DNA of 64,000 nucleotides from Candidatus Nomurabacteria bacterium RIFCSPHIGHO2_02_FULL_42_19. Its GTDB lineage: Bacteria > Patescibacteriota > Minisyncoccia > Phycocordibacterales > UBA9973. The stretch's first letter is position 1; each line of letters begins with the position of its first letter. The stretch covers positions 13,752 through 77,751 of the forward strand of contig MFUG01000016.1 of assembly GCA_001785615.1 (NCBI GenBank). The letters are read 5' to 3'. The position numbers were made by a program, and so were the translations under genes. This document shows positions 3,894-57,200 of the stretch, one piece after another. The notes below the pieces were generated by a model that was not told the DNA's origin, did no database searches, and saw only the letters and a program-made list of their open reading frames with translations.

Positions 3894-3967
3894 CGTGTTT
3901 TGCCTGCTAATTATACAACAAAACGAGCCACATGTGGCTCGTTTTGCATACTCTAAAGCGGTAAGTA

Positions 3968-20690: not shown

Positions 20691-21257
20691 ATGAAAAAAC
20701 AAATCATAACCATAAGCGGGATCCCTGGTAGCGGTAAATCTAGCACCTCTGATTTAGTGGCCAAGAAACTTGGCTTCAAACGATTTTCTTCAGGAGATTT
20801 TTTTAGAGAAATCGGGTTGGAATTAGAAATTTCTATTAATGATGTTTCTAAAAGAGCTGAAATTGACCCAACGATAGACCAAAGAACAGATGCTGAAATA
20901 AAAAAGCTGGGTGGTTCTGAAAAAATTGTTATCGATTCTCGCTTGGCATTTCATTGGATACCGGAATCATTTAAGGTGTATTTGGACCTACCGCCAGAAG
21001 TGGCCAAAGGAAGAATTTTGAATAACTTAAAAGAAAATCCTTTACGCAAAGAAAGTGAAAATGCAGAAACACACGAGGAGGTTTATGAGAAAATAATCCA
21101 TCGCCTAGAAAGCGAAAAAAAGAGATACAAAGAGCTGTACGGGGTAGACCATACTAAAAAAGAAAACTTCAATTTGGTGATAGACACAAACAAAAATAAC
21201 CTGGAGCAGGTTGCGGACATCATCGTGTCAGAATATAAAAAGTGGCTAACTAAATAA
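20691..21257 (+). CDS. cmk: cytidylate kinase (archaeal/short type)
   Basis: ITISGIPGSGKSS P-loop, 188 aa. The last 13 codons lie inside a 40-bp sequence that is duplicated 684 bp downstream. Confidence 0.7.
   Translation: MKKQIITISGIPGSGKSSTSDLVAKKLGFKRFSSGDFFREIGLELEISINDVSKRAEIDPTIDQRTDAEIKKLGGSEKIVIDSRLAFHWIPESFKVYLDLPPEVAKGRILNNLKENPLRKESENAETHEEVYEKIIHRLESEKKRYKELYGVDHTKKENFNLVIDTNKNNLEQVADIIVSEYKKWLTK
21209..21248. repeat. 40-bp direct repeat, left copy (cmk 3' end)
   Basis: ggttgcggacatcatcgtgtcagaatataaaaagtggcta is identical to 21933-21972. Confidence 0.9.
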
Positions 21258-21278
21258 AGTAGCTTTTTTGAAATTCAT

Positions 21279-21310
21279 ACGTGAATTCTAGCATATGCTA
21301 GAATTCACGT
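21279..21310. repeat. 32-bp perfect palindrome acgtgaattctagcatatgctagaattcacgt
   Basis: Equals its own reverse complement. An imperfect copy lies at 21885-21915 overlapping the start of the 21352-21900 gene. Confidence 0.9.
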
Positions 21311-21351
21311 AGATACTTTTATCATTGAGTATGTAAATCTAGTGAGTAGTT

Positions 21352-21900
21352 TTAGAGACCAAAATGATCTTTTAGCTTTTTATCATCCAAAACTTTGCTT
21401 ACTTCTAAAATCTCAATGTGTTTTCGTACGCCGAAAAAGTCTGCCACAAAGAGCATCTCCCCTTCACAAGGATATGGGTATACCCAGGTGCTTTTTTGAA
21501 ATTGCATAAATCCTAAGTCCTTTAATTTCCACCTGAAGGCCTCTCGCGCTTTTTTAAATCTGATGGGCAGATCATACATCACGATACGCCATTTGCCATC
21601 CCATTTACTCTGCTCTTTTATCACAATTTCATCAATAAATATCTTGCGCAGTTTATTTTCTCCTTTTTCTGTAAGAGTATAAAAATCCTTTTGTTCTCTT
21701 TTCACACGTCTCACAAATTTATAACGCCTGAGACCACCCAAAACTCTCTGCGCTTCTTTATCGCGATATGACAATTTCTCTCCAAGAGCGATAGCGCACA
21801 AGAAACTATGCGCGAGATTCAATCCTTCCCCGCCAGCGCTAAATACTTTCTTAAGCTTAATCAAATGTTCCCGTTTAACCATATACGTGAATTCTAGCAT
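21352..21900 (-). CDS. PaaX-like regulator (wHTH N-terminus + PaaX-C/Cas2-like C-terminal domain); probable start at second Met (21882)
   Basis: C-terminal SKWDGKWRIVMYDLPIRFKKAREAFRWKLKDLGFMQFQKSTWVYP fits the PaaX C-domain / Cas2-like pattern W.G.W..v.YD.p...R...R..L...GF..lQ.SvW. N-terminal KFVRRVKREQKDFYTLTEKGENKL looks like a winged helix. First 6 codons are encoded by the palindrome itself. Confidence 0.55.
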   Translation of the reverse strand: MLEFTYMVKREHLIKLKKVFSAGGEGLNLAHSFLCAIALGEKLSYRDKEAQRVLGGLRRYKFVRRVKREQKDFYTLTEKGENKLRKIFIDEIVIKEQSKWDGKWRIVMYDLPIRFKKAREAFRWKLKDLGFMQFQKSTWVYPYPCEGEMLFVADFFGVRKHIEILEVSKVLDDKKLKDHFGL

Positions 21901-21915
21901 ATGCTAATTCTCACG
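21885..21915. promoter_or_regulatory. imperfect copy of the 32-bp palindrome overlapping the regulator gene start (candidate operator)
   Basis: acgtgaattctagcatatgcta-attctcacg differs from the perfect copy by 1 indel and 2 substitutions. Confidence 0.4.
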
Positions 21916-21932
21916 ACAAGGGTGATTAGGCG

Positions 21933-21972
21933 GGTTGCGGACATCATCGTGTCAGAATATAAAAAGTGGCTA
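21933..21972. repeat. 40-bp direct repeat, right copy
   Basis: Identical to 21209-21248. In the cmk frame it reads ..EYKKWLEN* ending on a stop overlapping the secY stop, i.e. the presumptive ancestral cmk 3' end. Confidence 0.9.
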
Positions 21973-24505: not shown

Positions 24506-24596
24506 AAATAAATATACGAATATGCGAATTATACTAATCTGCGAATTATTCGAATGTATTTGTAAATTTGTATCATTTGTATATTCGTATGTTAAT
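24506..24596. repeat. AT-rich intergenic spacer with tacgaat / cgaattattcgaat palindromic motifs (family copy A)
   Basis: Shares atacgaatat...cgaattattcgaatNtatttgtaNatttgtat with 25131-25213. Similar motifs at 30897-30960 and 34614-34670. Confidence 0.6.
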
Positions 24597-38950: not shown

Positions 38951-41098
38951 TTACTTCCTAGCCGCGATAATAGTCTCCGCGACGTTGTTCGGCACGGTGT
39001 CGTAGCGTAAAAATTCCATTGTGAAAGAGGCGCGGCCCTCGGTCATAGAACGGAGGCCCGTCATGTAGCCGAACATTTCGGAGAGCGGCACGATAGCCCG
39101 CAGAACTTTATTCACGCCGCGGTCTTCCATTCCTTCAATCAATCCGCGCTTGCTCGAGAGATTGCCAGTAACGTCTCCCATGAATTTCTCCGGAGTGACA
39201 ACTTCTACTTTCATCATTGGTTCCAGGATTACCGGGTTTGCTCTTCGGCAAGCATCTTGAACTGCCATGGACGATGCAATTTTGAAAGCCATTTCGTTGG
39301 AGTCAACTTCGTGGTAACTTCCGTCCCAGAGATCCACTGAGACATTGACCATTCTAAATCCAGCCAGAATTCCGCGGTCAAGTCCTTCCTTGAATCCTTT
39401 TTCGCAAGGGGCAATATACTCCTGCGGAATCACTCCTCCTTTAATTGAATTTATAAATTCAAAGCCGGGCGAGCGCTTGGTATTTTTCGGCAAATCCTCC
39501 AATTCTTCTTTGGTCAGGGCTTCCATTGGTTTGACTTTTATTTTCACGTGGCCGTAGTTTCCACGTCCGCCGGATTGTTTGATATATTTTCCTTCGGCTT
39601 CAGCTCTGCCACTGATCGTCTCGCGATAAGCCACTTGCGGCTTGCCGACATTTGCTTCCACCGTAAATTCACGCTTCATGCGATCCACAATAATTTCAAG
39701 GTGTAGTTCTCCCATGCCGGCGATAATCGTCTCCCCTGTTTCCTGATCAGTAGAGACCTTGAAAGTTGGATCTTCCTGCGCTAGGCGGTTGAGCGCCATG
39801 CCCATCTTTTCCTGGTCGGCCTTTGTTTTAGGTTCAATGCGGAGCGAGATAACTGGTTCAGGGAAAACAATGCGGTTTAATTCTATCGGGTTATTTTCGT
39901 CACAAATAGTGTCTGAGGTAATGGTATCTTTCAGCCCTACCGCGGCGGCAATTTCTCCGGCAAAGACCTCTTTCACTTCCTCGCGGTCGTTGGCATGCAT
40001 GCGTAGGATACGCCCGATGCGTTCTTTGTTGCGAGTTCGGGGATTATAAATATAACTGCCGGCCGCTAGAGTGCCGGAGTAAACGCGGAAGAAAATAATT
40101 TGCCCCACGAATGGGTCTGTCGCTACTTTAAAAGCAAGAGCCGCAAATGGCTCCGAGTCCGATGCATGGCGCAACATTGGCTCTTCGGTTTCGGGGTTGA
40201 TACCTTCAATAGGAGGAATATCGGTCGGGGCTGGCAGATAATCCACTACGGCGTCTAGCACCAACTGCACACCTTTATTTTTTAAGGCCGAACCAGCAAA
40301 AACAGGAAAAATTCTATTTTCAATTACGGCTTTACGCAGCGTCGCCTTCAATGTATCAAAATCAGGGACAAGGCCGTCTAGGTATTGTGTCATTAGGGTA
40401 TCGTCTGTCTCCACTATTTTTTCAATAAGTTCGTTGTGATATTTTAGCGCCTCCGCTTTTAAATTCTCCGGAATTTCCGCTTCTCTTACTTGATTGCCCA
40501 TTTCGCCTTCAAAGTAATAGGCTTTCATACGAAGTACATCAATGACTCCTTCAAATTTATCTTCCAAGCCGATAGGAATCTGCATGCGCACCGCATTTTT
40601 ATTTAAGCGATCAAGAATGGTAGCGTATGACTTCTCAAAAGAAGCCCCGGTGCGATCTAATTTGTTAATGAAACAAACGCGAGGAACTTTCGCTTCATCG
40701 GCGTAGCGCCAATTTGTCTCGGACTGTGGTTCCACTCCAGCCACCCCGTCGAAGACCACTACTGCGCCGTCTAAAACGCGGAGTGACCTTTTCACCTCTA
40801 CGGTAAAGTCAATGTGCCCGGGAGTGTCAATAATATTAAAACGATGCTTCTTGGTCTTGTCAGTTAGTGCGTAAGTTGGCGTCCAGAAACAAGTCACCGC
40901 CGCCGAAGTAATGGTAATGCCGCGCTCGCGCTCTTGTTCCATCCAGTCCGTGACAGTATCGCCTTCATGCACCTCGCCGATTTTGTGTGAAACGCCAGTA
41001 TAAAAAAGCACGCGCTCGGTCGTGGTCGTCTTGCCCGCATCAATATGCGCGATAATTCCAAAATTTCTAACTTTTTCTAGCGGATAATCCCGTTGCAT
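38951..41098 (-). CDS. fusA: elongation factor G
   Basis: [27 protein letters not shown]. 715 aa. Confidence 0.98.
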
Positions 41099-41211
41099 AT
41101 AAACAAAAAGCGCTCATTGCGCTAGGAATAATATATACCAAATATCTTTTCATTGCAAACGGCTTGCTTGCGTGTTAAAAAGATAACTGAATAAAATTTT
41201 TCATCTAACTA

Positions 41212-41240
41212 CATATATGCGCGATAGCGTAAATATGTAG
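41212..41240. repeat. ~27-bp direct repeat copy 1 (exact 20-bp core cgcgatagcgtaaatatgta)
   Basis: Repeated at 41653-41680. Copies flank the 41251-41628 gene. Confidence 0.85.
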
Positions 41241-41250
41241 TTTAAGATAT

Positions 41251-41628
41251 TTAGATTATACTCTCCTTCCCTGTATAAGTTTTAGCTAATTTAAATGTTT
41301 TAAGTTGCCCCTTCAGCCCAATTTCTCTTAGATACTCTACAAATTCTTTCGGTAGCGGTGATGGTCCAACCCACACGCTTCGCTGTATCATAATGTAATC
41401 AAACTTTTTTAACTGCCTGCGAAACCAATCCCGCTCTTTTTTTCTGACATCTACGATGTCGTACATGACAATCAAGTTCTTGGGCGAATTTTTATGAAAG
41501 GGGGAAGAAAATGCTATGTGATAAAATTTTCTTTTCCGATTATTTTTCTTCACTCGACTTTTATCGGTCCAGACCGGAAGCCCAAGGGCGTTGATTCTTA
41601 TTCCTTTGTAGTAAAACTTTTTAGTCAT
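41251..41628 (-). CDS. Cas2/PaaX-C-like domain protein (125 aa), paralogous to the C-terminal domain of the 21352-21900 product
   Basis: NLIVMYDIVDVRKKERDWFRRQLKKFDYIMIQRSVWVGPSP versus RIVMYDLPIRFKKAREAFRWKLKDLGFMQFQKSTWVYPYP: the shared pattern is hVMYD-X6/7-R-X2-FR-X2-LK-X7-Q[KR]S[TV]WV-X-P. Confidence 0.5.
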   Translation of the reverse strand: MTKKFYYKGIRINALGLPVWTDKSRVKKNNRKRKFYHIAFSSPFHKNSPKNLIVMYDIVDVRKKERDWFRRQLKKFDYIMIQRSVWVGPSPLPKEFVEYLREIGLKGQLKTFKLAKTYTGKESII

Positions 41629-41652
41629 TAATGTAATTATACCCCAAAATAC

Positions 41653-41680
41653 ACATATACGCGATAGCGTAAATATGTAA
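41653..41680. repeat. ~27-bp direct repeat copy 2
   Basis: See 41212-41240. Confidence 0.85.
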
Positions 41681-41708
41681 GTGGAATTTTATTATATAGA
41701 GAAGCAGG

Positions 41709-42179
41709 CTACCAAGCGAAATGAGCAAAGGCCTTGTTGGCTTCGGCCATTTTGTGCGTATCTTCTTTTTTCTTTATCGCGGAACCCTCGTTTTTAGAAG
41801 CAGCGATTAATTCATCCGCTAACTTCAGGTGCATCGGACGCCCTTTGCCACTGCGAGCCGCGTCACGAATCCAGCGCATGGCGAGCGCGATTCGTCTCTC
41901 CGGGCGGACTTCTCTCGGCACTTGGTAGTTGGCGCCACCGATACGCTTGGAGCGGACTTCCGTGGAAGGACCGGCATTTCGCAGGGCCAAATCAAAAACC
42001 TCCAACGGATTCGGGTTGCCGGTTTTTTCTTTTATAATATCAAAAGTTGCATACATCATTTTGCGGGCTGTTTCCTTTTTCCCGGACCACATGATGTAGT
42101 TAATAAATTTCTCTAATTTTTGAGAATTATAGATAAAGTCCGGCTGTACGATATTTCTATTTTTTATTTTACGTCGCAT
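41709..42179 (-). CDS. rpsG: 30S ribosomal protein S7
   Basis: 156 aa, RIGGANYQVP, conserved S7 blocks. Confidence 0.95.
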   Translation of the reverse strand: MRRKIKNRNIVQPDFIYNSQKLEKFINYIMWSGKKETARKMMYATFDIIKEKTGNPNPLEVFDLALRNAGPSTEVRSKRIGGANYQVPREVRPERRIALAMRWIRDAARSGKGRPMHLKLADELIAASKNEGSAIKKKEDTHKMAEANKAFAHFAW

Positions 42180-42188
42180 GAAAATTTA

Positions 42189-42653
42189 TTAACCACTTGC
42201 TTTTACGTTATCACTTACTTTTACTGCTCTAGATTTCTTATCTTGTTTTGGTTTTTTATTCCCGTATAAAGATCTTCCTTGGCGCCTCTTCTCCACGCCC
42301 TGGGTATCGAGCACCCCGCGTACAATATGGTATCTCACTCCGATTAAGTCCTTCACGCGGCCGCCGCGGAGTAGCACCACTGAGTGTTCCTGTAGATTGT
42401 GCCCTTCTCCGGGGATGTAAGCGGTGACCTCCATGCCGTTGGTGAGACGCACTCTGGCAATTTTGCGAAGCGCGGAGTTCGGTTTTTTGGGAGTAGTAGT
42501 GGAGACCTTGGTGCAGACACCGCGCTTGAAAGGGCTAGAGAAAAAAACCGGCCTATTTTTAAGAACATTGAACCCCCTGGTGAGGGCGACTGTCTTGTCT
42601 TTAGGTTGGGATTTTACCCTGCTTTTTTTAATTAATTGATTGATTGTTGGCAT
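42189..42653 (-). CDS. rpsL: 30S ribosomal protein S12 (start at internal ATG 42651-42653; C-terminal K-rich extension)
   Basis: [12 protein letters not shown]...[10 protein letters not shown].. The track ORF is extended 37 codons upstream with no homology. Confidence 0.95.
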
Positions 42654-57136: not shown

Positions 57137-57200
57137 TTTTTTGCAATTTCCTCACCCCTGCTGCGCTTCCCCTCTCCATTTATAAATGGAGAGGGGCTAG
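57137..57200. other. nested GC hairpin (cctcaccc..cctctccattt ataa aaatggagagg..ggtgagg) between rplS and the Cys-rich gene
   Basis: Two concentric inverted repeats. No adjacent T-run, so not a canonical terminator. Confidence 0.5.

Follow-up and report, generated by a model that had tools for sequence, protein, structure and literature searches.

A palindrome-bounded cassette of about 470 bp encoding a Cas2-fold protein at the rpsG-fusA junction of a Nomurabacteria genome

The DNA analysed here is a 64,000-nt stretch of the genome of Candidatus Nomurabacteria bacterium RIFCSPHIGHO2_02_FULL_42_19 (contig MFUG01000016.1), referred to below as the window. On its minus strand the genes run rpsL, rpsG, an open reading frame (ORF) for a 125-aa protein, and fusA. 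The additional gene, with a palindromic repeat on either side, constitutes a cassette of ~470 bp that is delimited by the outer edges of the palindromes and recurs in dozens of genomic contexts without target duplication. The interpretation towards which we lean, with moderate confidence, is that the cassette is autonomous and self-regulated, in that its Cas2-fold protein would bind the palindromic ends and the unit would be moved by recombination at these palindromes. The rpsG-fusA junction of the str operon, which ranks with the best-conserved bacterial gene adjacencies, is here a hotspot.

Insertion at the rpsG-fusA junction and boundaries of the unit

The ORF is absent in four relatives whose rpsG is 91-92% identical and whose synteny is the same, as compared over the genes for DEAD helicase, L28, M50 peptidase, rpsL, rpsG, fusA, and dihydroorotate dehydrogenase. 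In three of these relatives, the ATG of fusA lies 6-9 nt past the rpsG stop codon and the junction is palindrome-free, and the fourth has a 128-nt rpsG-fusA spacer. Because close relatives with the same synteny possess such a tight, palindrome-free junction, the cassette is an insertion, as a first-pass annotation of this DNA had proposed; the empty sites also show that the gene is not a repeat-free, lineage-wide feature of this position, and they rule out that the palindrome was already there as a target. In other relatives, the junction is filled by the cassette together with additional small ORFs. A gene for a Y1 (IS200-type) transposase occurs near the str operon of one relative (L086, 634-1296), in which the rpsG-fusA junction is empty.

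The repeats that the first-pass annotation had placed around the ORF are real. An exact 20-mer, CGCGATAGCGTAAATATGTA, occupies positions 41220-41239 and 41660-41679 and has no other occurrence in the whole 64 kb, and no match arose across 100 shuffles. However, what had been described as ~27-bp direct repeats are 30-bp units (28/30 positions identical), each of which is an imperfect palindrome in itself, and they are sites belonging to the cassette, not target duplications. The similarity of the repeat surroundings out to 50 nt is weaker, AT-rich, and unconvincing.

When related copies in different contexts are aligned, homology begins at -48 to -53 relative to the ATG and ends at +39 to +50 past the stop codon, limits that coincide with the outer edges of both palindromes. 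Among 557 different-context pairs, the alignment ends cluster 0 ± 5 nt from the palindrome edges, and only 24 pairs on the left and 8 on the right extend more than 10 nt beyond them; alignments of copies in orthologous contexts continue through the flanks. No long target-site duplication was found beyond the palindromes in 36 loci, where the longest common substring was no better than in shuffles, no 3-6 bp duplication rose above the shuffled control at the cassette edges, and no target motif was present there. A DDE-type insertion sequence was therefore rejected, given the absence of long and short target duplications alike.

The family comprises 1,803 homologous proteins and occupies 323 places in GTDB species genomes (≤3 copies per genome), all of them in candidate-phyla bacteria of the Nomurabacteria/Paceibacterota group. 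The initial notion of a small mobile gene family is supported by the dispersed, multi-copy distribution and by the homology ending at the repeats, but a family of this size is not small. About 19 of 84 examined loci sit between rpsG and fusA, and these copies belong mostly to one clade. The remaining contexts are highly diverse, with 119 neighbour clusters among about 160 flanking genes (82 loci); they consist of varied housekeeping genes, with no conserved partner gene across the 82 loci and no paa catabolic genes beside the cassette. With regard to a phage origin, no relative was detected in 2.9 million viral contigs, and matches to PHROG families were weak only.

The members share a common layout, consisting of a palindrome, TATAAT, 6-7 nt, ATG, the coding sequence, a second palindrome, and T-rich sequence. 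Of 82 loci, 80 have the upstream palindrome, and at 75 of these 80 the distance from its end to the ATG is 19-22 nt; TATAAT stands at the matching position, 6-7 nt from the ATG, in nearly all of 84 aligned upstream regions. The downstream palindrome was found in 64 of the 82 loci, and the flank past it is T-rich (A(T/A)TTT-rich) family-wide. The cassette promoter is of the leaderless type, with the palindrome centred on -35; since the palindrome covers this position, its placement is operator-like.

The encoded protein, its palindromes, and the sister gene

The 125-aa product had been described as Cas2/PaaX-C-like. Pfam, AlphaFold2, and Foldseek agree with a Cas2/PaaX-like identity, but the domain is PaaX_M, not PaaX_C. 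The protein matches PF20803 (PaaX_M, 'PaaX central Cas2-like domain') with an E-value of 5.5e-11 and 42.8 bits (cut-off 24), and there is no Pfam match outside aa 52-116. The Cas2 models PF09827 (29.1 bits, cut-off 23.8) and TIGR01573 (25.0 bits, cut-off 24.5) were passed narrowly, both matches spanning aa 52-103 only and scoring below PaaX_M, and the full-length PaaX equivalog TIGR02277 reached 12 bits against a cut-off of 264.55. An AlphaFold2 model built with 71 homologues had a predicted local distance difference test (pLDDT) score of 81, and its best Foldseek matches were Cas2 (5zyf, probability 0.99), with VapD and E. coli PaaX (8a39) coming next. Residues 50-113 form the Cas2-fold (PaaX_M) domain, and residues 1-48 contain a conserved YYKG..VN.FGLP motif and a lysine/arginine-rich (K/R-rich) stretch, modelled at low confidence (pLDDT 59-75) as a short beta-hairpin plus the basic stretch. 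In the protein, for which Pfam gives PaaX_M/Cas2 alone, signatures of HUH, tyrosine-recombinase, serine-recombinase, and DDE enzymes were not detected, and it has no match to the HUH Y1 transposase model (PF01797).

Conservation is tight over the full length of the protein: 24 columns of the 71-sequence alignment are invariant, among them D57, E65, and D67, of which D57 is the Asp of the Cas2 'YD' motif (beta1 'hhhhYD'); identity across the best 120 homologues is 61-76%. A wider search recovered 2,012 relatives among 1.84 billion cluster representatives, the majority of which are 155-195 aa long. The closest larger relatives share the YYKG..VN.FGLP motif and carry a winged-helix-like segment in place of the K/R-rich stretch, and for this reason the 125-aa protein is a shortened (deletion) derivative of ~160-aa proteins that join a winged helix-turn-helix (wHTH) to PaaX_M.

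Across 114 distinct palindromic sites, half-site positions 1, 3, 4, 5, 7, 9, and 10 from the centre are near-invariant (A, C, G, C, T, T, and A, respectively); the other half-site positions differ by protein clade, yet they keep their complementarity in 72-81% of sites. In most sites, the palindrome continues through the centre without a loop. The two sites within one locus are 84% identical, compared with 69% for random pairs and 43-83% for same-genome paralogues, and the outer arms can differ strongly between paralogous cassettes of one genome. As a sequence pattern, this agrees with a symmetric, sequence-specific protein that reads double-stranded DNA and changes along with its site, and it agrees less well with a merely structural hairpin role. 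The recognising factor is presumably the cassette-encoded protein. At the RNA level, both palindromes of the window could fold into hairpins of -16 to -18 kcal/mol, the prediction for the downstream one being -16.4 kcal/mol (z = -4.7); the tail following it is GUUAGAUG, where a terminator scan made no call. A search of 40900-42400 for known RNA families returned just one chance sub-threshold match.

Palindromes also occur apart from the gene. When metagenome contigs were scanned for exact matches to the pattern of one palindrome class, 77 sites emerged, comprising 44 that adjoin a family gene, 12 near contig ends, and 21 solo sites. In 708 kb, about 6 palindromes lie away from a family gene versus 90 that adjoin one, and the only 2 sites in the 64-kb window both flank the 125-aa gene. 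Solo sites are located 3-20 nt from gene ends. They were not accepted as decayed cassettes, because no gene remnant was present within 600 nt of any of the 21; a clean deletion between the two repeats is a possible source. In orthologous reverse transcriptase (RT)-like ORFs, the palindrome lies in frame and in opposite orientations (L118, 853-875; L120, 1183-1205), falling between the IDSFH and KGLPLGNLTSQ motifs.

In addition, several relatives carry islands between rpsG and fusA (L003, 2966-5063; L126, 266-2266; L136, 8482-10700), in which unrelated small ORFs, a toxin-antitoxin pair, and a two-gene module are separated by the same palindrome. The order in L126 is palindrome, cassette gene, palindrome, two unrelated genes, and an identical palindrome, so that its second and third sites are identical direct repeats. 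The L136 island contains the toxin-antitoxin pair, the two unrelated genes of L126, and palindromes, and the cassette gene is absent from it. Several of the small ORFs have a common promoter (TTGACA...GGGGGGG...TATACT) and similar first codons (MGMEGP / MSMED / MGFEGPSQ), after which their sequences are unrelated. A solo site was further observed 13-14 nt past an xerD-like gene in two genome lineages (L124; L143/L151). A general link to dif/Xer was rejected, as four additional xer loci from this lineage were palindrome-free. A different, dif-like site, AATATTGTGCAACA-TTATCA-TGTCGCACAATATT, occurs 15 nt 5' of a conserved xerD-like gene (L164, 1948-1985) and is a candidate for the chromosome dimer resolution site of the lineage.

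A profile search over all ORFs of the window assigned only two products to the family, the 125-aa protein and that of the gene at 21352-21900 (ORF182). The homology claimed between them at first sight was verified by BLASTP, in which the 125-aa protein aligned to the C-terminal half of ORF182 with 32% identity over 69 aa (E 2e-9), and both match PF20803 (E 2.5e-19 for ORF182). The sister gene is bracketed by its own, different palindrome, which is a perfect 34 bp at 21278-21311 and degenerate at 21884-21916, and 40 nt from the 3' end of the neighbouring kinase gene are duplicated exactly and in direct orientation (21209-21248 = 21933-21972). The resulting layout, duplication - palindrome - gene - palindrome - duplication, has the appearance of a recent integration in which the target was duplicated; no long flanking duplication of this kind was found in the 36 tested loci of the 125-aa family. 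Beside the str operon of another genome (L005, 820-1390), a 160-aa wHTH+PaaX_M paralogue has its own palindrome type (CAGACGGCCGTCTG core) on both sides, the upstream copy being followed by TATACT, 6 nt, and ATG. The presence of this palindrome on both sides shows that the bracketed layout extends to the wider family.

The features of the locus are collected in Table 1. The promoter-like sequence and the GC hairpin before fusA are missing from the empty sites, in which fusA begins 6-9 nt past rpsG. The former would appear to give fusA a promoter of its own 3' of the insertion, and the insertion appears to have uncoupled fusA from rpsG.

Table 1. Coordinates of the cassette, its surroundings, and the sister cassette in the window
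Feature	Position	Strand	Remarks
Upstream 30-bp quasi-palindrome	41650..41679	-	In gene orientation TACATATTTACGCTA|TCGCGTATATGTGTA; outer terminus of the cassette
-10 box TATAAT	41636..41641	-	7 nt 5' of the ATG; putative leaderless-type promoter, as read from the sequence
Coding sequence of the 125-aa protein	41251..41628	-	At the rpsG-fusA junction
Downstream 30-bp quasi-palindrome	41210..41239	-	11 nt past the stop codon; other terminus of the cassette
Promoter-like TTGCAA-17-TATATT	41130..41158	-	Before fusA; also before fusA in the filled site L001
Short GC hairpin AGCGC-loop-GCGCT, then T-run	41109..41123	-	Directly 5' of the fusA ATG (41098); also in L001
rpsG	41709..42179	-	Left neighbour of the insertion
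fusA (elongation factor G, EF-G)	38951..41098	-	Right neighbour of the insertion
Sister cassette, wHTH+PaaX_M gene 21352-21900 (likely start 21882)	21209..21972	-	Between secY and a kinase gene

Some further sequence elements of the window were recorded. A -10-like hexamer lies 5-8 nt before the ATG in 18 of 75 genes and a Shine-Dalgarno (SD)-like motif was seen in just 7 of 75; to judge from these counts, leaderless initiation seems to be common in the source genome. A 25-nt leader motif, GCGTACGCGTCCTATTTC(T/G)(A/T)ACGGG, lies immediately before the ATG of two genes of the ribosomal-protein region (30406-30433 and 33353-33380), and a near copy abuts the fusA ATG in a cassette-free relative (L085, 4070-4102); it may be a translation-related element. 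Two further intergenic palindromes, both perfect and 28 bp long, are located at 3919-3946 (CAAAACGAGCCACATGTGGCTCGTTTTG) and 57169-57196 (CCCCTCTCCATTTATAAATGGAGAGGGG) and have no sequence kinship with those of the cassette. An intergenic segment of the ribosomal-protein cluster (24513-24590) contains two short arrays of 17-nt tandem repeats (TATACGAATATGCGAAT; ATTTGTAAATTCGTATC).

Proposed mechanism and alternative explanations

In the interpretation that we favour, the 125-aa protein would act as a dimer and bind both 30-bp palindromes sequence-specifically. Binding at the upstream palindrome, centred on the -35 position of the TATAAT-N7-ATG promoter, would regulate the cassette gene itself, and the downstream palindrome together with the T-rich sequence would end the transcript and mark the other edge of the unit. 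The whole unit would relocate by recombination at the palindromes, and it could be driven by the cassette's own protein, by a recombinase of the host, or by homologous exchange via the palindromes. At the junction studied here, the insertion separates fusA from rpsG and would leave fusA to use its own promoter.

Several observations weigh against this interpretation, in which DNA binding, dimerisation, and regulation are steps that we infer. The 125-aa form is without the recognition helix and wing of its winged-helix relatives, and this loss, together with the low-confidence N-terminus, means that sequence-specific binding by the short form is not assured. About one quarter of the sites of one palindrome class have no adjoining family gene, and palindromes also bound unrelated genes, which argues for a role beyond regulating the cassette gene. 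Differences between the sites of one locus are mostly one-sided (132) versus 40 that are compensated. Mutual information between protein columns and palindrome positions peaks at residues 22-41, which are also the most variable columns, and is confounded by column entropy and phylogeny. With respect to mobility, which the first-pass annotation had proposed, no near-identical copies were found in different contexts, and identical ORF125 and ORF182 proteins always have the same context in other samples, with no sign of ongoing strain-level transposition. In the one close pair of copies within a genome (L008/L010), identity exceeds 95% over the stretch that begins at the start codon and runs 6 nt beyond the downstream palindrome, but their upstream palindromes are only about 70% identical, a pattern that looks more like gene conversion.

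Movement might instead proceed much as in systems of repetitive extragenic palindromes and REP-associated tyrosine transposases (REP/RAYT), with the Cas2-fold protein serving as a nuclease or strand-transferase that would recognise the palindromes, perhaps as hairpins, and mobilise the cassette, the gene-less palindromes, and the cargo. We regard this as unlikely, although it accommodates many observations: a gene flanked by cognate palindromes of a clade-specific type, lone palindromes at tight intergenic spots and in frame in the RT-like ORF in both orientations, unrelated cargo bounded by the palindrome, the lack of both target duplication and target motif, the invariance of D57, E65, and D67, and asymmetric sites that are mostly mirror images at the two ends (GATA upstream, TATC downstream). 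However, the protein bears none of the HUH, tyrosine- or serine-recombinase, or DDE signatures, solo copies are scarce both in the window and in the 708 kb, the nearest relatives are winged-helix proteins and as such typical double-strand DNA binders, and no recent jumps were seen. A slightly lower probability still attaches to the proposal that the cassette is a new minimal mobile element, whose Cas2-fold protein, devoid of any known kind of transposase or recombinase domain, would recognise ~30-bp palindromic repeats and mobilise them in the shape of its own ~470-bp cassette, gene-less palindromes, and bounded cargo. If true, the element would be related to the part of CRISPR adaptation that deals with repeats, in a free-living form that places a Cas2-like gene between two repeats. 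A host tyrosine recombinase could likewise shuffle modules at the palindromes, in the manner of Xer/dif modules, leaving the Cas2-fold protein as cargo or regulator; the ~30-bp bounding sites with two half-site types and a short centre, the module arrays of L003, L126, and L136, the solo sites next to xerD-like genes in two lineages, and the absence of target duplication would all agree. Nevertheless, we consider this very improbable, as four more xer loci are palindrome-free and one has a different dif-like site, the outer arms vary among same-genome paralogous cassettes in a way that a single host enzyme would not predict, the cargo module of L126 is flanked by direct rather than alternating sites, and the fixed phase between palindrome and -10 box is left unexplained.

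The protein could be an ordinary lineage-specific transcription factor, inherited vertically and governing a small regulon, with the palindromes as operators or terminators and the varied contexts produced by genome rearrangement. The strong conservation of the protein (61-76% identity in the best 120 homologues, 24 invariant columns), the concentration of the rpsG-fusA copies mostly in one clade, the operator-like position of the palindrome, and the extra sites near other genes would suit such a factor, but empty sites exist in equally close relatives, homology stops exactly at the palindrome edges across contexts, several paralogues occur per genome, and places 3-20 nt from gene ends or even within an ORF are unusual for operators, and we think this explanation quite improbable. 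A single-gene toxin of the VapD/Cas2 type, acting in addiction or abortive infection and silenced by its own N-terminal DNA-binding part, is compatible with the favoured interpretation; it would account for the Cas2/VapD fold with conserved acidic residues, the patchy, multi-copy, island-like distribution beside toxin-antitoxin genes and variable small ORFs, and the autoregulation-type architecture. Its likelihood is nonetheless as low as that of the Xer/dif explanation, given that there is no partner antitoxin gene, that defence-system models match as Cas2 alone, and that PaaX_M is not known as a nuclease. Finally, a genuine CRISPR adaptation Cas2 or a remnant of a CRISPR-cas locus is refuted in practice. 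Although the Pfam and TIGRFAM cut-offs for Cas2 are narrowly passed and several databases name the protein Cas2, its neighbours are rpsG and fusA, neither cas1 nor any conserved neighbour is found in the 82 loci, the window contains just four short tandem repeats and no CRISPR array, the palindrome occurs exactly twice, PaaX_M scores better, and a 50-aa N-terminal extension is present.

Significance and relation to known systems

In candidate-phyla genomes, hundreds of database entries that bear the name 'CRISPR-associated endonuclease Cas2' or 'PaaX' belong to this cassette family, and they should not be counted as CRISPR components in genomes that are mostly without CRISPR. The layout also offers a testable protein/site pair in organisms with almost no characterised regulators. 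In a unit so small and sharply bounded, without a recognisable recombinase, the mechanism of movement could uncover a new way of using a host recombinase or a new capacity of the Cas2 fold for handling DNA. The latter, if true, would be relevant to how Cas2 and palindromic repeats came to function together, and a role of the protein itself in moving the cassette would be categorically new. A literature search returned no description of the cassette family or of its layout.

Among characterised proteins, PaaX (PF20803, 8a39) provides the best domain match and a structural match in the fold search, and the larger relatives of the cassette protein likewise join a winged helix to PaaX_M. PaaX binds palindromic operators. 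However, the 125-aa protein is without the N-terminal winged-helix domain and PaaX_C, no paa genes lie nearby, and the gene behaves as a discrete cassette with sites of its own on either side. With CRISPR Cas2 and VapD, which are ferredoxin-like small nucleases, the protein shares the fold and the beta1 'hhhhYD' motif with its conserved Asp, whereas the cassette is without cas1, an array, or an antitoxin partner, the protein has an extra conserved N-terminal 50 aa, and its gene stands between exactly two palindromic repeats instead of beside an array. IS200/IS605-type elements and integron cassettes are likewise very small, have ends that can form hairpins, and leave the target unduplicated, and there are arrays of promoterless or small ORFs set apart by imperfect palindromes; unlike these, the cassette contains neither TnpA/HUH nor an integron integrase, has the same palindrome at both ends, and carries its own promoter.

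REP/RAYT (PMC3116915, PMC5581495) and dif modules (PMC6449649) offer the closest analogies, and the cassette was found to lack defining features of each, namely the HUH Y1 transposase of the former and the general xer linkage and alternating site orientation of the latter. In REP/RAYT systems, a low-copy, mostly vertically inherited gene is flanked by cognate palindromes (PMC3116915, PMC3337134, PMC5581495). The cassette resembles them in these respects and in its clade-specific palindrome type, its extra intergenic palindromes, and the absence of target duplication, but its protein is not a HUH Y1 transposase, its solo palindromes appear to be few rather than hundreds in the sequence scanned, and its upstream palindrome is phase-locked to the promoter. 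The dif modules of Acinetobacter plasmids are small gene modules, often toxin-antitoxin pairs or single genes (PMC6449649), and with these and other Xer-exploiting elements the cassette shares two-armed bounding sites of ~28-30 bp and an arrangement in arrays. It differs in that its sites are non-alternating (L126), vary within a genome, and are not generally linked to xer, and in that its modules are chromosomal and located inside housekeeping operons.

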